Of a stretch of DNA of 8,756 nt, positions 1-8,756 are shown in pieces. The notes below the pieces were generated by a model. That model did no database searches, was not told the origin of the DNA, and was given only the letters and a program-made list of their open reading frames with translations. This DNA comes from Escherichia coli (GTDB lineage Bacteria; Pseudomonadota; Gammaproteobacteria; Enterobacterales; Enterobacteriaceae). The position numbers and the translations under genes are program-made. The stretch lies in the NCBI RefSeq assembly GCF_003334385.1, contig NZ_QOWN01000071.1; one strand, given 5' to 3'. Within the stretch, counting starts at the first letter, position 1; each line of letters opens with the position of its first letter.

Positions 1-99
1 AACGCGAGGCATCGTCTTAACGAGGCACCGAGGCGTCGCATTCTTCAGATGGTTCAACCCTTAAGTTAGCGCTTATGAGATTTTTCCCCGCCAGCGTCA

Positions 100-876
100 T
101 CATTTCCGGATTTTCGCCAGTGCATCCGCCATGCTGCGGATTTCATCCCGTGCCTCCAGAACAACCTCCCGCAGAATATCCCGGTCAAACCAGCGACGGG
201 ACGGTTCATCCGGTATACGCAGCACATCACAGACCAGACCACTGGCCAGGATATGCTCAATACAATCGCTGACCAGGTACATTTCCACCGACGAAAAACG
301 TGCTCCCCGGTTCACGATGGCATCGAGCACCACGGGCAGATTTTCGTCATCTTCATCAAGCCAGCAGGGGTAATCGCTTTCCTTCACAACCAGACGAAAG
401 CGGCGCGTCTGGCGGGTCAGCAACGTCTGACCGGTGGTGGTCAACGCCGCACGGATACGCCGCGCATCTTCTGCCACCCGGCAACTGACACTGCATACTG
501 CATCGCGCACCGCATCAAAAACCGCCCTGATTTCTTCCTCCGTCAGCCATTCACCGGCATACGGGAAAGACACCTGCGTTCCGTCTGCCGGAAGTACCGG
601 CAGCGACTGCCACTGACTGCCGGACAGTACAACTTCCGCCCCGGTTCCGGTCAGTTTCTGAATGGCGGAGGCCAGGTGCGGCGGCAGCACGCCATCGTGG
701 CGGTTAACGAGTAACGTCGCCAGCCGGGGCGCATCCAGCAGAACATAAATGCTGATCCAGCCCGGATACTTCGGGTTACGCTGGTCAACATCCGTCTCTT
801 CCGGCCAGCCCTGCGCCAGCAGCAGGTTGCGGGCGTGACGACAAATCAGTGCGTTCAGCGTTGTGTTTTCGTTCAT
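100..876 (-). CDS. Hypothetical protein (258 aa), last gene of the methyltransferase-led operon
   Basis: Long ORF on the minus strand. The reverse complement of 877-895 gives ttcaGGGAGAacgattaat immediately before the ATG, a Shine-Dalgarno-like GGGAGA. It follows the three upstream minus-strand genes with short gaps. I do not recognise a family; function unknown. Confidence 0.7.
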
Positions 877-921
877 GATTAATCGTTCTCCCTGAATCGC
901 CGCCCGGAGGCGGCGATAACA

Positions 922-1356
922 TCAGTCGTTTTCGTGTCTGTTGTTTTTCAGCAGGGTGCGGGCCTGATTAATCACCGCCTGACGGCGGGTGACGCATTCC
1001 GGGACGGCGAGGCCATAATCCCGGGCGGCCCATTCACGTTTCCACAATGCCTGTTCAGCGGTCTGAATCAGGGACGTCAGCAGTTCAGCAGGGACGGTCA
1101 CCTGGCGGTTTTCTCTCACGTTATTGATGATCTCCATCGCCACGCCGGAAGAAATACCGGATTCAGTCCGCTGGTCTTCCGGGATGTCCTCCAGGCGCGC
1201 CAGGACGGTTCTGATTTCATGATCGGACAGAGAAATATCCATTCCGTCAGCGAGGGCCTGAATCTCTTCCGGGGACCAGATAACCAGCATCAGCGGCGTG
1301 TCTCCCGGATACTTTGCTGCCAGCGCCCGGCATAGCGTTTCGCATGTTCCGTACAT
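922..1356 (-). CDS. Hypothetical protein (144 aa), third gene of the methyltransferase-led operon
   Basis: ORF with a strong RBS: the reverse complement upstream of the ATG reads gattgAGAAGGAGAcgaga-ATG. It sits 13 bp downstream of the preceding minus-strand gene. No family recognised from the sequence alone. Confidence 0.7.
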   Translation of the reverse strand: MYGTCETLCRALAAKYPGDTPLMLVIWSPEEIQALADGMDISLSDHEIRTVLARLEDIPEDQRTESGISSGVAMEIINNVRENRQVTVPAELLTSLIQTAEQALWKREWAARDYGLAVPECVTRRQAVINQARTLLKNNRHEND

Positions 1357-1369
1357 TCTCGTCTCCTTC

Positions 1370-1591
1370 TCAATCTTTGAAGCAGGAATCCAGTTCCAGA
1401 ATTTCGGTATACGCCTCCATGAACAGGCGATTGGCGCGATACAGCGTCTGGCGTGTCAGGCGTTCAACAAGCACATCGGAATCAAAGCGACAGCGATGCT
1501 CCATATCGTTCAGCCTGGCCCGAAGGTCACACATGGTGTTGGCCACCTCCGCCACGTCGGCGCGAAGTTTTTCGTGTCCGGCATAGTTCAT
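1370..1591 (-). CDS. Hypothetical small protein (73 aa), translationally coupled to the methyltransferase gene
   Basis: Its ATG directly abuts the methyltransferase stop (minus strand reads ...TAA-ATG). GGAGG lies 8 nt upstream of the ATG, inside the methyltransferase 3' end. Small size makes the call less certain. Confidence 0.6.
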   Translation of the reverse strand: MNYAGHEKLRADVAEVANTMCDLRARLNDMEHRCRFDSDVLVERLTRQTLYRANRLFMEAYTEILELDSCFKD

Positions 1592-2275
1592 TTACGCAGC
1601 CTCCGGTTCAAACCAGTTATCATTCGCGGCCCCCTGCTGCATGGCCCGTTGCACGGCGGCCAGTCGTTGCTGTCCGGCACGGTGATACTGTTCAAGCAGC
1701 TCGATACCGATATACCGGCGTCCGGACTGAAGGGCGGCCACGCAGGTTGAGCCGCTGCCTGCAAACGGGTCCAGCACAATCGCGTTCGGATGTGTGAAGC
1801 TCTCAATCAGCGGTTGCAGGCTGGTAACGGGCTTTTCCGTCGGGTGATGACGATTGCCTGAATATTTCCAGCCCAGCACATCCGGCAGAGGGTTACGGGG
1901 CCGGGCCGGACTGCCCTTTGCCAGGATGTAAGCGCATTCGTGGCGGTACGCGACATACGCAGATTTGGATGTGTAGTTTTTGGTGAACACGAGGTGCCCT
2001 GCCACGCTGAATCCGGCGCGTTTCCAGGCCGCCATAAAGCGGTCAATACGGTGCCAGCCGTAGAAGCTGACCATCAGCGCGTCTTTTTTGAGTACGCGGT
2101 ACATTTCATTACAGGCCGGTTGCAGCCATTCATCGGTTTTATCGCCAGCGATGGTGCGCCCGAAACGGTCACGAAAACCGACGAGGTACGGCGGGTCAGT
2201 CAGTATGAAATCAATGGCGTTATCAGGAATACGGGCCATAACATCGATGCAGTTACCGAGGACAAAACGGGACAT
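1592..2275 (-). CDS. Orphan DNA methyltransferase, N6-adenine/N4-cytosine beta-class (227 aa)
   Basis: The translation contains DPPY near the N-terminus (ILTDPPYLVGF) followed later by an FxGxG AdoMet-binding motif (VLDPFAGSGST) and HPTEKP. This motif order is typical of beta-class amino-methyltransferases. RBS AGGAG lies upstream of the ATG (reverse complement of 2276-2290 is agaAGGAGcgttgtt). No restriction endonuclease partner is adjacent. Confidence 0.85.
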   Translation of the reverse strand: MSRFVLGNCIDVMARIPDNAIDFILTDPPYLVGFRDRFGRTIAGDKTDEWLQPACNEMYRVLKKDALMVSFYGWHRIDRFMAAWKRAGFSVAGHLVFTKNYTSKSAYVAYRHECAYILAKGSPARPRNPLPDVLGWKYSGNRHHPTEKPVTSLQPLIESFTHPNAIVLDPFAGSGSTCVAALQSGRRYIGIELLEQYHRAGQQRLAAVQRAMQQGAANDNWFEPEAA

Positions 2276-2620
2276 AACAACGCTCCTTCTCTTACAGAGG
2301 ACACCAGGAGGGCACCCCTGTGGTGCCCGTTCCCCGCTGCCTGTGGGCTGTTCACCGCGTCCGGTAACGGGTCAGGCCGACCGTGGAATACCGCAGCAGC
2401 CGTCGTCTTTCTGACGGCAAGGCTATGCCGCGAAAGCGGCTTGAAGGGCGTTCATCAGAAAAGGGCTCCTGGCTGGCGTACACTGGCACCGACGCCAGCC
2501 AGGAGCGGTAAAAGCGCCCGTCCCGTGCCTGATCGGACGCGGGACACTGACCACAGGCAGCGTTCCTGCCGCGCCGCGTCAGCCGGCGCAGTAAAAAGAG
2601 GAGCCCGGCGACATCCTTTG
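2276..2620 (-). promoter_or_regulatory. GC-rich, hairpin-dense non-coding leader upstream of the methyltransferase operon (possible promoter or single-strand promoter-like element)
   Basis: No credible ORF with an RBS. Inverted repeats read directly: perfect 15-bp stem gctcctggctggcgt (2465-2479) with acgccagccaggagc (2492-2506) and a 12-nt loop; GGGCACC (2310-2316) with GGTGCCC (2322-2328); GCCGTC (2399-2404) with GACGGC (2413-2418); gtcccg (2520-2525) with cgggac (2540-2545). The region lies between the parR terminator and the methyltransferase start. Confidence 0.45.
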
Positions 2621-2654
2621 TCGGAAAAGAAAAAAGGACGCAACAGCGTCCTTT
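2621..2654 (-). terminator. Rho-independent terminator downstream of the parR-like gene
   Basis: Stem AGGACGC (2635-2641) and GCGTCCT (2646-2652) with loop AACA. On the minus strand the hairpin is followed by a U-run (plus-strand A-run ggaaaagaaaaaa at 2621-2634). It sits 16 bp after the parR-like stop. Confidence 0.65.
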
Positions 2655-2669
2655 AACAGAGTTCAGTTC

Positions 2670-3098
2670 TTATTCATCATCCGGAAACAAGTTCTTAATG
2701 TTGTTTCTTGTTTCCAGGAGATTCTGATCGACTGGAGCAGATATTTCTTGCGTAGCAGAATCAACCGCAGGCAGGATCGTTTTTGCATTATTACCGGCAG
2801 ACTGCAGAAATGCCTCCAGCAAACGAACAACTTCACCATTTTCCTGTTGTGGTAGCGTACTACTGATAATTCGTTGAATATCCCGCATAGACGTGCTGTC
2901 TGTCAGGAATTCAGCTATCAGAAACGGCAATCGTTCATCCTGTTTCATCAATGCAGCACCACACAACATCATGGCCCGCATTGCCCGACCACGTTCTTTC
3001 TGAGGCAATTTTTCAAGAAACCTGTCAGCCACCCGATCAGCTGCATTTCGTTCCGGATAAATATAAAAAGAGCACTTACGATTATCAGCCATACTCAT
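2670..3098 (-). CDS. parR: ParR/StbB-like centromere-binding partition protein (142 aa)
   Basis: Small gene immediately downstream of the parM-like gene and overlapping it by 4 nt (ATGA). By recollection it resembles plasmid R1 ParR in its central part (...LPQKERGRAMRAMMLCGAALMKQDERLPFLIAEFLT...). An alternative start two codons in (3092) has better SD spacing. Confidence 0.65.
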   Translation of the reverse strand: MSMADNRKCSFYIYPERNAADRVADRFLEKLPQKERGRAMRAMMLCGAALMKQDERLPFLIAEFLTDSTSMRDIQRIISSTLPQQENGEVVRLLEAFLQSAGNNAKTILPAVDSATQEISAPVDQNLLETRNNIKNLFPDDE

Positions 3099-4075
3099 CC
3101 CTTCATTGCCATCATTCCCAACACCAGATCGAACTGAGGATTGTCACTGACAAAGAAACGGTTATCACCCACTCCTGTCGCTTTTTTTACTGCCCCAGCC
3201 ACAAGGCTGGCACCACCGCCAACAACCATAACATGAGTAAAACCAGCAAAGCGTCCTACTGAATCCGCCACACGATGCTGCAGTTTTTTTTCCCGGTCAC
3301 GTAATACTGTCAGGATCTGCTCACGCTGTTCTGCATTCGGGATATAACGAGTCAGGAATTCATTGTCATCCCGGCCCTGGATTAGACGATCTGCAAAATA
3401 AGAACTGGTTCGTGTACTCACATTCACATCCATCGCATGCTTAACTGCTTCAGTAATGATGGAAACGCCTGTCTTGGGGTCACAATAAGTTTTTGTGAAA
3501 CCGGACATTTTGCTGCGGACATGTGCAATATCAAGGGTCGTTCCACCGATATCAACGATCAACAGCGACTCCAGATCATTCAGATCTTTCAGCACGTCAA
3601 AACCGGCAGGCACGGACTCAGGCAAGACACTGACTTTACGAATGGTAAAGTTTTCACGCCCCTGAACTGTTACAGCTCGTCTGACATTATTTTTCTTACG
3701 TTCGATATTAGCCAGATTTGGCTGATCGTTCTCATCCAGATACTCACCTAAAGGTAAAGTCACAACAATATCAACAGGTTGCGGAGCAATACCTGACTGC
3801 ATCAACGCATGATGAATAGCAACCACATTAACGTCGCTGTACTGATAACGCGTTTCTGTGGTGCGCACTGCATCCGGACTCAATTGATCAAAGCTGTATT
3901 TCTCTCCATCAATCTCATAGTTTGCGGAAGCGGGTATAGTGGCATCAGTCAGTCCCTGCAGCGTCATAGACCATTCCGGTTTAAAACTATTCGGGCTAAT
4001 TAACGTTTTCACTGCACCGTCTTCAACCCAAGCCAGTTTGATGTTGGTAGAACCGTCATCTACAAAGATACGCAT
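3095..4075 (-). CDS. parM: ParM/StbA-like actin-family plasmid segregation ATPase
   Basis: The N-terminus MRIFVDDGSTNIKL, the phosphate-2-like LIVDIGGTTLDIAHV, and HVMVVGGGASLV match recalled ParM/StbA (R1/R100) motifs. I place the start at the ATG at 4075-4073, preceded by GTGAGGTTCTGG. The ORF track extends to a GTG at 4087 that overlaps that SD. Confidence 0.85.
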   Translation of the reverse strand: MRIFVDDGSTNIKLAWVEDGAVKTLISPNSFKPEWSMTLQGLTDATIPASANYEIDGEKYSFDQLSPDAVRTTETRYQYSDVNVVAIHHALMQSGIAPQPVDIVVTLPLGEYLDENDQPNLANIERKKNNVRRAVTVQGRENFTIRKVSVLPESVPAGFDVLKDLNDLESLLIVDIGGTTLDIAHVRSKMSGFTKTYCDPKTGVSIITEAVKHAMDVNVSTRTSSYFADRLIQGRDDNEFLTRYIPNAEQREQILTVLRDREKKLQHRVADSVGRFAGFTHVMVVGGGASLVAGAVKKATGVGDNRFFVSDNPQFDLVLGMMAMKG

Positions 4076-4087
4076 CCAGAACCTCAC

Positions 4088-4300
4088 AGAATAAAATGGA
4101 TTTTTTTAGAAAAATATGGTGTCGAAAAAGATTATCACCTAGAAACACGCATCAGTAAAGACCTGATATCGGCCACAAACAGAAAGATAAAGAAAAATAA
4201 AGACAAAAACCGACTCAAATAGCACACCAGGGAACAAACAAGAACAATAAAAGACAAATGCAGTTAAAATTCAGAAAAAAACTGAACAGGTGAACGGAGA
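4088..4300 (-). promoter_or_regulatory. AT-rich upstream region of the parMR-like operon (putative promoter and parC-like centromere)
   Basis: About 210 bp of A-rich non-coding sequence directly upstream of parM, where parC sits in known parMRC loci. Loose recurrences of aaagac/aaagat motifs are visible, but I could not delineate clear iterons by eye. Confidence 0.3.
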
Positions 4301-4664
4301 AGGGGGCTCATCCAGCACATGCTGTATTTGGGTTCAGTTTGGAATTCGGAAAATAAACCACGTTAAGACTATTTTTTAGCCAAATGGCTTTCAGGAATCG
4401 CCAGAATGGCGGGACAACAGTGGTTTTGGTGTCCGAAATCGTACAATTCTGTACATCTACGCAAGGAAATGTACGGAAGTAAGCCAAATGGTTATCGGAC
4501 GGTAGGAACATTTCGTACAGCCTTTACGTTCAGTGAGTGAGCTGGTCTGGATGTAACCACTCGTTCAACTCAATTCTCTTAGCGTGGGAAAATTTCCTTT
4601 CTCCAAGCGGCTCCCAAACCGTAATTCCCGGCAAGCCCGGTAAGCTGGGCAGCAAGCTAGGCAC

Positions 4665-4964
4665 TCAAAGAATGAACCGGGGATTCTGACGCTGACCTAC
4701 AACCGCCAGGATATTGACACGACGGGCCTTATCATTCACTTCATAAAGTACATGCTGCCCAAGTAAGCTAATACGACGAACCCCTTCGCCATAGCGTTCA
4801 TCAGTTTCATACAGCCGAGGGTAATCAGCCAGGCGATCGGTTGCAGTGATCAGACGCTCTGTCACGTTCCTTGCATCCCAAAGAGATGCATTCTCAGCCA
4901 GATATTCAAACAGCGCAGTTATATCTTCAATTGCACCTGGTCGCCATTCTATTTCATAACTCAT
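4665..4964 (-). CDS. RelE/ParE-superfamily toxin of a type II toxin-antitoxin module (99 aa)
   Basis: About 100-aa protein whose start overlaps the upstream small gene by 11 nt. The sequence pattern (YEIEWRPGAIEDI..., ...RRVNILAVVGQRQN) is consistent with RelE/ParE-fold toxins as I recall them. Confidence 0.7.
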   Translation of the reverse strand: MSYEIEWRPGAIEDITALFEYLAENASLWDARNVTERLITATDRLADYPRLYETDERYGEGVRRISLLGQHVLYEVNDKARRVNILAVVGQRQNPRFIL

Positions 4965-5217
4965 TGCGCAGTTCCTGATAACGTCCCTGTAGTTGCTGGC
5001 GCAGTTGCGCGGAACTCATTCCCGGCCGCTTATCGGCGCGAGCAGCGGCAACTTTCGCTCGTATCTGTTCGTCGTATTCTGCCCGTGCCAGTTCTTCATT
5101 AGCAAGGCGTTGCAATAGTGCAGACTTGTCTGTACTGCCTTCTGGAAAAATACGAGGCAGGCTTTCGGCCAGCTCGCGCAGGAAATTGGCGTTTTCGTAA
5201 TGTGTGGTGCTATTCAT
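4954..5217 (-). CDS. Putative antitoxin of the RelE/ParE-type module (87 aa from the second ATG)
   Basis: Small ORF upstream of and overlapping the toxin gene (antitoxin-first order). I prefer the second ATG at 5217 because the minus strand reads ATGAAGGGGGAGTCAACT-ATG, which places a GGGGGAG SD about 7 nt before it. The ORF track starts at 5235. Antitoxin family uncertain. Confidence 0.6.
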   Translation of the reverse strand: MNSTTHYENANFLRELAESLPRIFPEGSTDKSALLQRLANEELARAEYDEQIRAKVAAARADKRPGMSSAQLRQQLQGRYQELRNEL

Positions 5218-5291
5218 AGTTGACTCCCCCTTCATTTAATAAAGAGCAATTACAGGTTTTTTGATGTCGTACGCATGGGTATAACGAGTCA

Positions 5292-5305
5292 GAATATCGA
5301 TATTC
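5292..5305. promoter_or_regulatory. Perfect 14-bp palindrome GAATATCGATATTC upstream of the toxin-antitoxin operon (candidate operator)
   Basis: Read directly; self-complementary. It lies about 75-88 bp upstream of the preferred antitoxin ATG. Type II antitoxins commonly autoregulate through palindromic operators. Confidence 0.3.
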
Positions 5306-5619
5306 ACTCCGATGATATTGTTTCACAGGCAGGCGATAACCGGAAAATAATGCTCATTTACCTGGCAATCTGCGTGTTGTCAGGTTTTATACAGAGTATA
5401 TAACCTTTCAGACACAGCCACCAACATATGCCGCGTCAGCGGCATGGAAGGCGGTACTCTGTGGTTACATGCGGCACAAGTGTAAAACCGCCGAAGCCCG
5501 GCGTAAGCCGGTACTGATTGACAGGTTTCACCTTACCCACCCCCGGCCCTGCCAGACAGTGGGGGCTTAAAGGGGTAGTGTGACATCCTGACAGCAACTG
5601 AAAGCAAAATGTAAACACA

Positions 5620-5812
5620 ATATTAATTTTTGTAAAAAAGCAATAACTATACAAACATAACTAACTGATATTACTATTAAATATTTAACAGGCGTACAAA
5701 TTTAGTTCAAATTATCATTGCAAAATATAGTTAATTACAGCAAGTAACTAGTGTTGGCCAACATACTATTCAGATGTCATAAGCATTAATTTCCCTTAAA
5801 AAAGGAGTCCTT
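5620..5812 (+). promoter_or_regulatory. AT-rich promoter and leader region of the microcin B17 operon
   Basis: Strongly AT-rich tract directly upstream of mcbA. Candidate -10-like hexamers are TATAGT (5726-5731) and TCATAA (5777-5782), the latter with TTGGCC (5754-5759) 17 bp upstream. mcbA RBS AGGAG is at 5803-5807, 5 nt before the ATG. Exact promoter not mapped. Confidence 0.4.
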
Positions 5813-6010
5813 ATGGAATTAAAAGCGAGTGAATTTGGTGTAGTTTTGTCCGTTGATGCTCTTAAATTATCACGCCAGTCTCCATTAGGTGTTGGCATTG
5901 GTGGTGGTGGCGGCGGTAGCTGCGGTGGTCAAGGTGGCGGTTGTGGTGGTTGCAGCAACGGTTGTAGTGGTGGAAACGGTGGCAGCGGCGGAAGTGGTTC
6001 ACATATCTGA
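5813..6010 (+). CDS. mcbA: Microcin B17 precursor peptide McbA, variant with a shortened poly-Gly linker (65 aa)
   Basis: The translation MELKASEFGVVLSVDALKLSRQSPLG-VGIGGGGGG-SCGGQGGGCGGCSNGCSGGNGGSGGSGSHI matches the microcin B17 leader and core as I recall them, including the Gly-Ser-Cys and Gly-Cys-Ser heterocyclisation sites. Only 6 Gly codons (5900-5917) follow VGI. Confidence 0.95.
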   Translation: MELKASEFGVVLSVDALKLSRQSPLGVGIGGGGGGSCGGQGGGCGGCSNGCSGGNGGSGGSGSHI

Positions 6011-6027
6011 TACGTTGAATTAACCGT

Positions 6028-6050
6028 TCAGGGAGCATGGTGCTCCCTGA
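6028..6050 (+). promoter_or_regulatory. Perfect stem-loop between mcbA and mcbB (10-bp stem, 3-nt loop)
   Basis: tCAGGGAGCA (6028-6037), loop TGG, TGCTCCCTGa (6041-6050), verified base by base. It starts 18 nt after the mcbA stop and encloses the first in-frame ATG of the mcbB ORF (6037). It is not followed by a U-tract. Confidence 0.5.
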
Positions 6051-6924
6051 TATTAAAAAAGGAAAAGATATGATCAATATTCTGCCATTTGAGATAATTT
6101 CCAGAAATACAAAGACCCTGCTTATTACCTACATTTCTTCAGTAGACATTACACATGAGGGAATGAAAAAAGTACTCGAAAGCCTACGATCCAAACAGGG
6201 TATTATTTCTGAATACCTCCTTGATAAACTACTGGACGAATCGCTTATTGATAAAGACAAGGGCAAAGAGTTTCTTATTACCACAGGCGTGATAAATAAA
6301 ACGAAAACATCACCTCTCTGGGTAAACTCAGTCATAATAAGCGATGTTCCACATCTTTTCAGTAATGCCCGGGAACAATGGAAATCTGATGGTGTTTTTG
6401 TTTCTCATATCATTGATATAAAAGATAATAATATTAATGTGAGCGATTCAACACTAATCTGGTTACATCTCGAAAACTATCATTCAGACATTGTAAAAAG
6501 AATCTATTCAAAATTTGAAAGTAACCCTGGTGTTGCCTTCATCCAAAGCTACTACCTAAAGGAGTCATTCAGGATAGATGGAGTATATTCACCTGATCTT
6601 GGTACTCCCTGCCATTTTTGTCATATAGAGAGATGGCTGAGCAGGGAAGAAAAAAGCTTCAGACGTAACGAAATGTCCTGGGCAAATTTACTTCAGTTAC
6701 TGAAAAAATACTAAATGACACTACCAGCATTGGCTTTAGGCGAGTCAGAAAGAGGATTCAGCTATCATTTAATAAAACGGCGACTTCAGGAGTTGACAGG
6801 TACTTCACTGGTTAAAAGTCATGTCGATAGCTTTATGTCATCTGTTAGCGCTGATTTAATCACCTGTATTTTATGTAAAGAGCCGGTAATTCACTGGCAG
6901 GCTTGCAGCTGTCTGGAGAGATAA
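6037..6924 (+). pseudogene. mcbB: mcbB (microcin B17 synthetase zinc-binding scaffold subunit) interrupted by an in-frame TAA at 6712-6714
   Basis: The 225-aa ORF 6037-6714 and the 69-aa ORF 6715-6924 are in the same frame, separated only by TAA. Together they give 225+1+69 = 295 codons, which is the McbB length I recall. CHFCH lies in the N-terminal part and CILC...CSC in the C-terminal part. An RBS-supported alternative start is the ATG at 6070 (AGGA at 6060-6063). Confidence 0.8.
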
Positions 6925-6925
6925 C

Positions 6926-7744
6926 ATGTCAAAACACGAACTCTCTTTAGTGGAAGTAACGCATTACACAGATCCTGAAGTTCTGGCCATTGTTAAAGAT
7001 TTTCATGTCAGAGGTAACTTTGCTTCCCTCCCCGAATTTGCTGAACGAACTTTCGTGTCCGCGGTACCTCTTGCCCATCTGGAGAAATTTGAAAATAAAG
7101 AAGTTCTCTTCAGGCCAGGTTTCAGCTCCGTAATAAACATATCCTCATCACATAATTTTAGTCGTGAAAGGCTCCCATCAGGAATAAACTTTTGCGACAA
7201 AAATAAACTTTCCATTCGTACTATTGAAAAGTTATTAGTCAATGCATTCAGCTCACCTGATCCTAGCTCTGTAAGAAGACCTTATCCTTCTGGGGGGGCA
7301 TTGTGCCCGATTGAAGTTTTTTTATGCAGATTATCTGAAAATACAGAAAACTGGCAGTCAGGAACTAATGTTTATCACTACCTGCCGCTAAGTCAGGCAC
7401 TGGAACCTGTTGCTACATGTAATACTCAGTCACTCTACCGAAGCCTGTCCGGTGGGGATTCGGAACGTCTTGGTAAACCCCATTTTGCTCTCGTCTATTG
7501 CATTATTTTTGAAAAAGCTTTGTTCAAATATCGCTACAGAGGATACCGGATGGCCTTAATGGAAACAGGTTCGATGTATCAGAACGCAGTATTGGTTGCA
7601 GATCAAATAGGACTGAAAAACCGGGTATGGGCGGGATATACCGATTCATACGTAGCAAAAACAATGAATCTGGATCAGAGGACTGTAGCGCCACTGATCG
7701 TTCAGTTTTTTGGAGATGTAAACGATGATAAATGTCTACAGTAA
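6926..7744 (+). CDS. mcbC: McbC, FMN-dependent dehydrogenase of microcin B17 synthetase (272 aa)
   Basis: 272-aa ORF, matching the McbC length I recall. It starts 1 nt after the mcbB stop, with GGAGAG 7 nt upstream, and contains a nitroreductase-like RPYPSGGALCPIE region. The gene order follows the known mcb operon. Confidence 0.93.
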   Translation: MSKHELSLVEVTHYTDPEVLAIVKDFHVRGNFASLPEFAERTFVSAVPLAHLEKFENKEVLFRPGFSSVINISSSHNFSRERLPSGINFCDKNKLSIRTIEKLLVNAFSSPDPSSVRRPYPSGGALCPIEVFLCRLSENTENWQSGTNVYHYLPLSQALEPVATCNTQSLYRSLSGGDSERLGKPHFALVYCIIFEKALFKYRYRGYRMALMETGSMYQNAVLVADQIGLKNRVWAGYTDSYVAKTMNLDQRTVAPLIVQFFGDVNDDKCLQ

Positions 7745-8618
7745 CCTTATGTCCGCATGGCCGGCCACAATGGCCATGAGTCCAAAACTGAACAGAAATA
7801 TGCCAACGTTTTCTCAGATATGGGACTATGAGCGTATTACACCAGCCAGCGCGGCCGGTGAAACTCTGAAGTCAATTCAGGGGGCAATAGGTGAATATTT
7901 TGAACGCCGTCATTTTTTTAATGAGATAGTCACCGGTGGTCAGAAAACATTATATGAGATGATGCCTCCATCTGCTGCAAAGGCTTTTACCGAAGCATTT
8001 TTTCAGATCTCATCACTGACCCGCGATGAAATCATAACCCATAAATTTAAAACGGTCAGAGCCTTTAATCTGTTTAGCCTTGAACAACAAGAAATACCTG
8101 CAGTCATAATTGCACTCGACAATATAACCGCTGCAGATGATCTGAAATTTTATCCTGACAGAGATACATGCGGATGTAGCTTTCATGGTAGTTTGAACGA
8201 TGCCATAGAAGGTTCCTTGTGTGAATTTATGGAGAGACAGTCCCTCCTTCTTTACTGGTTACAGGGAAAAGCCAATACTGAAATATCCAGTGAAATAGTA
8301 ACAGGCATAAATCATATTGATGAGATTTTACTGGCTCTCAGGTCAGAAGGAGATATCAGGATTTTCGATATCACCCTGCCCGGAGCTCCTGGACACGCAG
8401 TACTAACCCTGTATGGCACAAAAAACAAAATCAGTCGAATAAAATACAGTACCGGATTATCCTATGCTAATAGTCTGAAAAAAGCACTTTGTAAATCCGT
8501 AGTGGAATTGTGGCAATCGTATATATGCCTGCACAACTTTCTTATTGGCGGTTATACTGATGATGACATTATTGATAGTTACCAGCGTCACTTTATGTCA
8601 TGCAACAAGTACGGGTAA
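7725..8618 (+). pseudogene. mcbD: mcbD (YcaO-type cyclodehydratase of microcin B17 synthetase) truncated by an IS1-family insertion
   Basis: The ORF starts MINVYSNLMSAW... and overlaps the mcbC end by 20 nt. It runs 296 mcbD codons and then ends in G-stop, where the codons are supplied by the IS1 terminal repeat (GG-TAA-TG). McbD is about 396 aa by recollection, so roughly the C-terminal 100 residues are missing. Confidence 0.88.
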
Positions 8619-8636
8619 TGACTCCAACTTACTGAT
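8614..8636. repeat. IS1 terminal inverted repeat (23 bp)
   Basis: GGTAATGACTCCAACTTACTGAT matches the IS1 terminal inverted repeat consensus. It directly abuts mcbD coding sequence. Confidence 0.75.
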
Positions 8637-8756
8637 AGTGTTTTATGTTCAGATAATGCCCGATGACCTTGTCATGCAACTCCACCGATTTTGAGAACGA
8701 CAGTAACTTCCGTCCCAGCCTTGCCAGATGTTGTCTCAGATTCAGATTATGTCGCT
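8629..8756 (-). CDS. insB: IS1 transposase InsB, C-terminal fragment (5' end outside the window)
   Basis: The minus-strand translation ...[41 protein letters not shown]-stop matches the IS1 InsB C-terminus from memory. The stop TAA is the complement of 8629-8631. Confidence 0.75.

Follow-up and report, generated by a model that had tools for sequence, protein, structure and literature searches.

What does an RNA hairpin do between the gene for an antibiotic precursor and the genes for the enzymes that act on it, and where does the first of those enzyme genes begin? Both questions are raised by an 8,756-nt stretch of Escherichia coli DNA (NCBI RefSeq assembly GCF_003334385.1, contig NZ_QOWN01000071.1; hereafter the window), in which the region for microcin B17 (mcb) production occupies positions 5498-8613 and belongs to an IncF-type plasmid. 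The only sizeable spacer within mcbABC is the one between the precursor gene mcbA and the synthetase gene mcbB, the gap from mcbB to mcbC being 1 nt, and this spacer contains a stem-loop. Comparison with related loci argues that selection has maintained the hairpin in every McbB-type azole-peptide operon examined. Translation of mcbB is predicted on the same grounds to start at the ATG at 6070, which places the hairpin wholly between the cistrons. The elements of the junction are as follows.

5813 to 6010, plus strand: mcbA, microcin B17 precursor, from the open reading frame (ORF) list; 65 amino acids (aa) here, stop codon TGA at 6008-6010; annotated 'microcin B17 family TOMM' in matching plasmids.
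6011 to 6027, plus strand: spacer from the mcbA stop to the hairpin, 17 nt, A/U-rich and single-stranded in the fold.
6028 to 6050, plus strand: sense-strand RNA hairpin of 10 bp, -16.8 kcal/mol; 5' arm 6028-6037, loop 6038-6040, 3' arm 6041-6050.
6037 to 6039, plus strand: upstream in-frame ATG, its A the last base of the stem arm and its TG in the loop; used as the McbB start in ON989342 and PDB 6GOS.
6051 to 6058, plus strand: A/U-rich single-stranded linker TATTAAAA from the hairpin to the Shine-Dalgarno (SD) sequence; not a U-run.
6059 to 6064, plus strand: mcbB SD AAGGAA, core AGGA at 6060-6063; duplex with the anti-SD -5.6 kcal/mol, spacing 5-6 nt.
6070 to 6924, plus strand: mcbB from the conserved start, 284 codons, interrupted here by a CAA>TAA nonsense change at 6712-6714.

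An earlier note made from this DNA had described a perfect 10-bp stem with a 3-nt loop at 6028-6050, 18 nt past the mcbA stop, which encloses GGGAG and the ATG at 6037 and leaves AGGA (6060-6063) and the ATG at 6070 outside. The sequence bears out each of these positions. An inverted-repeat search returned two 10-nt arms, 100% complementary and 3 nt apart (TCAGGGAGCA at 6028-6037, loop TGG at 6038-6040, TGCTCCCTGA at 6041-6050), with 17 nt intervening after the stop so that the stem begins at the 18th base, and GGGAG lies at 6031-6035 within the 5' arm. The hairpin is on the sense strand, after the stop at 6010 and before the SD at 6059-6064. Folding of 6011-6085 gave a minimum free energy of -18.4 kcal/mol, compared with -11.05 +/- 2.48 for dinucleotide shuffles (z = -2.96; 1 of 200 shuffles was as good). 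The intergenic segment alone gave z = -3.96 and fell within the lowest 2% of mcbBCD coding windows of the same length. In five transcript contexts, which ranged from the mcbA message alone to RNA reaching far into mcbB, the eight inner pairs had probabilities of ~1.0 and the two end pairs of 0.66-0.87. Among perfect stem-loops with a true loop, the hairpin is the longest in the window, and it is single-copy there. By our own arithmetic, assuming uniform base composition, chance would supply ~0.05 perfect 10-bp stems with 3-8 nt loops per window (8756 x 6 x 4^-10). A search of Rfam 15 gave no family at the gathering score, the sole match being a sub-threshold hit to isrP, at 19.2 bits where 45 are required (E = 0.35).

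We then asked whether the structure recurs in other operons. Comparison loci, designated here by L numbers, came from plasmids of Klebsiella, Edwardsiella and Enterobacter, all at ~82% DNA identity, and of Rahnella (68%); from species genomes, namely those of Kosakonia, Tenebrionibacter, Erwinia persicina and Mixta; and from twelve further contigs, whose McbB homologues have 82% to 43% identity and which supplied most of the diversity. Two phazolicin clusters on plasmids of Rhizobium and Mesorhizobium (21-24% McbB identity) served as an outgroup. Several apparent mcbA homologue lengths of 93-104 aa are artefacts of ORF extension to upstream TTG or GTG starts. The scan of species-genome contigs yielded 6 loci, including 2 E. 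coli-like sequences in non-E. coli assemblies; these two (L007 and L012), filed under a Lachnospiraceae metagenome-assembled genome and Terrisporobacter mayombei, are 100% identical to E. coli mcbB and are probably contamination or mis-binned plasmid fragments.

A strong hairpin lies between the precursor stop and the mcbB SD in 20 of the 20 other McbB-type loci examined whose sequence includes the spacer, L019 and L021 among them; the Enterobacter spacer (L005) is the same as that of Klebsiella. Across 18 loci, the hairpin has an energy of -12 to -22 kcal/mol and begins 10-27 nt past the precursor stop, and 17-25 nt separate its end from the mcbB ATG; set against windows of the same length from the mcbBCD coding sequence of its own locus, each spacer falls in the lowest 0-6.7%. 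The earlier note had staked its proposal on whether the inverted repeat is conserved, and the hairpin proved to be kept, with covariation. In both phazolicin loci, L027 (Rhizobium sp. Pop5, 1444-1500) and L028 (Mesorhizobium loti, 1386-1500), a GC-rich hairpin directly follows the precursor stop, and this extends the pattern beyond the Enterobacterales. The Salmonella locus L017 (GCA_016563025.1, 1014-1501) has a McbB of 61% identity, a 62-aa precursor whose C-terminal tail is different, and a spacer of 298 nt before mcbB. Its 15-bp hairpin nevertheless stays 27 nt after the precursor stop and ~240 nt from mcbB, which indicates that the hairpin is tied to the mcbA 3' end and not to the mcbB ribosome-binding site (RBS). 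The arms found in the different lineages (5' arm / 3' arm) are given below.

E. coli: TCAGGGAGCA / TGCTCCCTGA
Klebsiella: an A-U pair of E. coli becomes G·U
Erwinia and L021: the same pair is G-C, completing the compensatory change
Pantoea-like loci: CAGGGGGCC / GGCTCCCTG
Rahnella and L023: GGCTAAGGACG / CGTCCTTAGCC
L024: CGAACTAAGGGG / CCCCTTAGTTCG
Mixta: GGGGGCGG / CCGCCCCC
L018: GCCAGGGC / GCCCTGGC
L020: CAGGGGCA / TGCCCTTG
L022: GUCAGGGCGC / GCUCCCUGAC, with one internal C·U mismatch, owing to which automatic hairpin extraction caught only the inner 3 bp

Covariation was counted over the ten pairs in the 12 spacers that could be aligned. Standard pairs occupied 96.7% of cells, compared with 44-51% when the partner column was slid by 1-3 positions, and in two pairs both partners had changed (A-U/G-U/G-C and A-U/C-G/U-A). 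For covariation the score was 0.203 against 0.092 for shuffled alignments, and none of 500 shuffles reached it. In the more distant loci the arm sequences are unrelated and the pairing is kept, so that it is structure rather than sequence that is conserved. In loci with G·U pairs, these stabilize the sense strand over the antisense by 4-6 kcal/mol. The selected object is for this reason the sense-strand RNA and not a DNA palindrome.

The position of the hairpin relative to mcbB depends on which start codon is used. McbB is a 295-aa protein beginning MVLPDIKKGKDM, from ATG 6037, in PDB entries 6GOS, 6GRG, 6GRH and 6GRI (as deposited sequence) and in the 2024 pMccB17 reference (GenBank ON989342). 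RefSeq/PGAP lists a 284-aa McbB from ATG 6070 (WP_016235969.1), and the two numbering schemes are consequently offset by 11. Full-length McbB homologues are 283-296 aa long, mostly 284-286, and all 14 homologues aligned with E. coli McbB (82-43% identity) begin at the Met that aligns with 6070, with M1, P6 and E8 invariant. No in-frame start codon was found in or upstream of the hairpin in 19 other mcb-like loci (the two phazolicin loci being left out). Only in the E. coli type, with its 59-nt spacer, does the ATG at 6037 fall in frame; the 58-nt spacers of Klebsiella, Salmonella, Erwinia and others put it out of frame, and in many lineages the hairpin contains no ATG at all. A GGA/GGAG motif precedes mcbB at the same offset in every locus. 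The predicted cost of opening the RBS is 20.3 kcal/mol at 6037 and 4.3 at 6070, and GGGAG is only 0-1 nt from ATG 6037, an unworkable SD distance, whereas AAGGA is 5-6 nt upstream of ATG 6070.

Homologue N termini, reading frame, accessibility and the PGAP annotation therefore agree with the suggestion of the earlier note that mcbB starts at 6070 and that the hairpin is intercistronic. The 11-residue extension is not conserved and its start is predicted to be inaccessible. Since the spacer of the E. coli lineage exceeds that of its nearest relatives by one nucleotide, ATG 6037 is most likely a lineage-specific coincidence that was taken up by early annotation rather than the native start, and the extension most likely an annotation artefact. 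The portion of Ghilarov 2019 covered by our text search does not state the first ordered McbB residue. For mcbD the discrepancy runs the opposite way: PGAP starts E. coli McbD at the equivalent of 7776, for a length of 379 aa, while the literature and homologous loci have 395-397 aa, overlapping mcbC. ATG 7725 has GGAG 8 nt upstream and 7776 is without an SD, and the longer form looks right.

With the hairpin placed between the cistrons, we considered whether it is a terminator. Six of its ten base pairs are G-C, as in the GC-rich stem-loop of intrinsic terminators. However, the earlier note had seen no U-run behind the stem, and the sequence there (TATTAAAAAAGG) agrees: the tail, UAUUAAAA, holds 3 U in 8 nt, where a canonical terminator U-run has at least 5. 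Across 18 loci the 8-nt tail holds 1-4 U, with just 1 in L024 (ACAAAAAU; the Rahnella tail is CACAUAUG); it starts UAUU in E. coli and UUUU or UUUA in Pantoea-like loci. A terminator scan of 5200-8756 found no terminator-like site. Elsewhere in the window, a canonical intrinsic terminator is present at 2633-2654 on the minus strand (AAAGGACGC-TGTT-GCGTCCTTT followed by TTTCTTTTCC), just after an stbB-like ORF at 2670-3098. Like the mcb hairpin it has a GC-rich stem and a short loop just past a stop codon. Unlike it, the mcb hairpin has no U-run and is internal to an operon in which the genes further downstream need transcription. The U-run at 2633-2654 suggests that this replicon uses U-runs where termination is needed. 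Judged by its tail, the mcb hairpin is not a canonical intrinsic terminator, and the lack of a conserved U-run favors a stabilizer or processing element over a classical terminator.

We hypothesize that the hairpin defines or protects the 3' end of the mcbA mRNA and thereby raises precursor over synthetase, in an operon in which mcbB starts at 6070; taken as a whole, this is probably the correct account. The operon would be transcribed from a promoter upstream of mcbA, and the hairpin would fold once RNA polymerase has passed. A hairpin needs 10-15 nt beyond the ribosome in order to fold (PMC4824070). The 17 nt from stop to stem here is at or above that requirement and would permit folding despite a ribosome on the mcbA stop. 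The folded hairpin would then define and protect the 3' end of a short mcbA message. In the favored route, 3'-to-5' exonucleases would be halted at the hairpin after an endonuclease cut in the A/U-rich linker at 6051-6058, a candidate endonuclease entry site. This route is ranked above termination because no U-run is conserved, although low-efficiency termination at the imperfect UAUU tail could contribute. The placement is that of a 3'-exonuclease barrier, for which no U-run is required, with a stable hairpin 3' of mcbA that remains with mcbA in the Salmonella locus. Stems of 8-15 bp are too short for RNase III, and cleavage by that enzyme was set aside on that ground. The outcome would be an mcbA mRNA more abundant and longer-lived than that of mcbBCD, and such an excess fits a stoichiometric need for the substrate and a catalytic need for the enzymes.

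Three points weigh against this account. The comparative data speak for selection and not for purpose, and a role in translation would leave the same pattern. Of 106 E. coli records, 102 or more match the 71-nt spacer region at 99% identity or above, and this invariance affords no test within the lineage. In addition, RT-qPCR (reverse transcription-quantitative PCR) in mcb-like clusters of Pseudomonas detected transcription across the mcbA-mcbB junction (PMC12858515), which implies that any block is partial. We also entertain, as a long shot, a broader proposal in which a U-run-independent conserved module of all McbB-type operons (microcin B17, its enterobacterial congeners and phazolicin) sets the precursor:synthetase ratio by neither classical termination nor a simple exonuclease block. 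Ribosome-assisted termination or processing of the type found in the microcin C (mcc) operon, or a barrier to re-initiation after the precursor ORF, would be examples. If this were true, the strength of the module would tune antibiotic yield.

The mcc operon is the closest parallel. Its mccA-mccB hairpin, together with message stabilization, yields a ~20:1 ratio of short to long transcript, and a deletion within the intergenic region sharply lowers production (PMC4231749). Experiments showed the mcc element to be an intrinsic terminator, which upstream RNA masks and ribosome binding exposes (Zukher et al. 2014, PMC4231749). Both are plasmid-borne enterobacterial microcin operons that have one upstream promoter and in which a hairpin parts the precursor gene from the first enzyme gene, and the arrangement is kept between distant operons without conservation of sequence; in mcc its purpose is an excess of precursor message. 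The mcb hairpin differs in having no U-run and no predicted competing structure, in following a precursor gene of 65-69 codons rather than 7, and in being known here from sequence alone. Masking of its C-rich 3' arm by G-rich mcbA RNA in the manner of mcc was considered and rejected, since the inner pairs stayed at ~1.0 and the end pairs at 0.66-0.87 in all five contexts. Other intercistronic stem-loops, such as the repetitive extragenic palindromic (REP) elements of malE-malF and the hairpin of Rhodobacter puf, shield upstream mRNA from 3' exonucleases. Like the mcb hairpin these are stable, lack a U-run and lie inside an operon after a cistron needed in larger amount, but REP elements are dispersed repeats, whereas the mcb hairpin occurs once in the window and evolves together with its operon. 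Lantibiotic structural genes (such as nisA-nisB, epiA and spaS) are followed by inverted repeats that allow limited read-through. These repeats too lie between the precursor and biosynthetic genes of a ribosomally synthesized peptide that is modified posttranslationally (RiPP), although they are Gram-positive, often have U-runs and belong to a different RiPP class.

Other explanations for the hairpin would assign it to different steps. If it were a weak intrinsic terminator or attenuator, polymerase would stop there in a fraction of rounds and the short mcbA RNA would be a primary termination product. The GC-rich stem, the short loop, the UAUU or UUUU/UUUA start of the tail and a stop-to-hairpin gap at or above the 10-15 nt required for folding behind a ribosome (PMC4824070) are what such an element would show, and the mccA-mccB element is a true terminator. 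However, no locus has 5 or more U in its 8-nt tail, ACAAAAAU in L024 and CACAUAUG in Rahnella being examples; the scan found no terminator-like site; the window does hold a U-run terminator at 2633-2654; and the conserved part is the hairpin rather than the tail. We therefore regard attenuation as possible but unlikely. A translational insulator is, to our minds, a more doubtful explanation. It would keep ribosomes or 30S subunits leaving the mcbA stop from re-initiating at mcbB and would fix the 5' edge of the mcbB RBS, leaving McbB uncoupled and lower. Its appeal is that the near-constant 17-25 nt from the 3' end of the hairpin to the mcbB ATG matches a ribosome footprint edge, that the SD is never overlapped, and that mcbB and mcbC are tightly coupled (1 nt apart) whereas mcbA and mcbB are not. 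The Salmonella locus speaks against it, as the hairpin there is near mcbA with mcbB 298 nt off, which ties it to the mcbA 3' end. Insulation is, however, compatible with roles at the RNA level and could act alongside them.

The same Salmonella arrangement (27 nt after mcbA, ~240 nt from mcbB) associates the hairpin with mcbA and makes it improbable that it instead protects a 5' end, shielding mcbBCD mRNA from 5'-end-dependent RNase E after a cut in the 17-nt spacer. Hairpins at 5' ends are known mRNA stabilizers, and the spacer at 6011-6027, being A/U-rich and single-stranded, would suit such a cut. Repression of translation through the 295-aa start is very unlikely. The hairpin would then keep McbB low by hiding ATG 6037 and GGGAG, and indeed both ATG 6037 and GTG 6040 are in frame in E. 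coli, GGGAG precedes the ATG, and ON989342 and PDB 6GOS list 295 aa. Nevertheless, the 0-1 nt SD spacing, the 20.3 kcal/mol opening cost and the starts of homologues and of the PGAP model at the 6070 equivalent all contradict it, and in each of the 19 further mcb-like loci checked the ATG is either lacking or not in frame. There is hardly any likelihood that the repeat acts as DNA (a protein operator, cruciform or insertion hot spot) or arose by chance. At least one plasmid (L025) does have an insertion sequence, IS1, placed precisely in the loop, but the arms are replaced between lineages with pairing kept, the G·U pairs are strand specific, and an operator would conserve its sequence; as for chance, ~0.05 such repeats are expected per window, yet the hairpin recurs in 20 other loci.

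The IS1 insertion in the loop is found in E. coli plasmids L025 (NZ_OZ369165.1, 1725-2510) and CP088751.1, with GCATGGTG duplicated on both sides. In L026 (NZ_AP027791.1), IS2 begins 8 nt after the hairpin and mcbB-C are deleted. These plasmids are natural hairpin-split variants of the mcbA-mcbB junction.

The mcb copy in the window is 99.4% identical over 5498-8613 to E. coli plasmid pEcoUTI1d (L001) and 99.0% to the canonical mcb plasmid (L002), and the operon is defective: four McbA Gly codons are absent, mcbB carries a nonsense change and IS1 lies in mcbD. The poly-Gly linker of McbA has 6 Gly rather than 10 through a 12-nt deletion (GGCGGCGGCGGC) at 5909 relative to L002, and the resulting 65-aa McbA is identical to WP_021545189.1 of pEcoUTI1d. 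Plasmid match lengths of 701, 704, 709/710, 713 and 716 nt were observed, as were McbA homologues with 6-13 Gly; the match lengths suggest that the run of Gly codons differs in length, in frame, among isolates. At 6712-6714 in mcbB, a C>T change converts CAA (Gln; CAA in L001 and L002) to TAA at codon 215 of the 284-aa frame, giving two ORFs of 214 aa and 69 aa, and either mcbB is a pseudogene in this copy or the change is a sequencing error. Homology to mcbD ends at 8613, and 8613-8756 matches the IS1 end present in L025 (97%); for these reasons mcbD is interrupted by IS1 after ~296 codons. The hairpin of this copy is identical to that of intact operons, and the defects leave its analysis unaffected. 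The remaining genes of the operon and those identified upstream are listed here.

6926 to 7744, plus strand: mcbC, from the ORF list.
From 7725, plus strand: mcbD, from the ORF list.
1592 to 2275, minus strand: DNA methyltransferase (NF010253, E = 7e-148).
3095 to 4087, minus strand: ParM/StbA-like ORF.
4665 to 5235, minus strand: weak RelB-like antitoxin and partner ORF.

Save for a 243-nt patch at 2379-2621, the backbone at 1-5497 is unlike that of pMccB17-type plasmids, which gives the mcb module different plasmid surroundings in this DNA. On the minus strand, a further intercistronic hairpin lacking a U-run was observed at 896-917 (ATCGCCGCC-TCCG-GGCGGCGAT), 4 nt past the stop of the ORF at 922-1356 and just before GGGAG and the ATG of the ORF at 100-876. 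It shares the mcbA-mcbB layout, although the plasmid genes concerned are unrelated.

The mcb hairpin belongs to a known type, the intercistronic hairpins that part a RiPP precursor gene from its enzymes, and the start at 6070 is already in RefSeq. Our literature search returned no mention of an mcbA-mcbB hairpin, stem-loop or terminator or of the start-codon issue, although the 1989 mcb sequence and transcript paper (Genilloud), which lay outside that search, may have noted the dyad symmetry. What appear to be new to the literature searched are the covariation of the hairpin across the McbB-type family, phazolicin included, and the comparative case against the 295-aa McbB. The microcin B17 literature numbers McbB and builds its expression constructs by the 295-aa form, of which the first 11 residues are very probably not natural. 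When mcb-like or phazolicin-like clusters are refactored or expressed heterologously, altering the spacer RNA may shift the substrate:enzyme ratio and the yield, as the mcc deletion illustrates. The mcbA-mcbB junction would thus be another instance, documented through covariation, of RiPP operons separating the expression of substrate and enzyme by an intercistronic hairpin.

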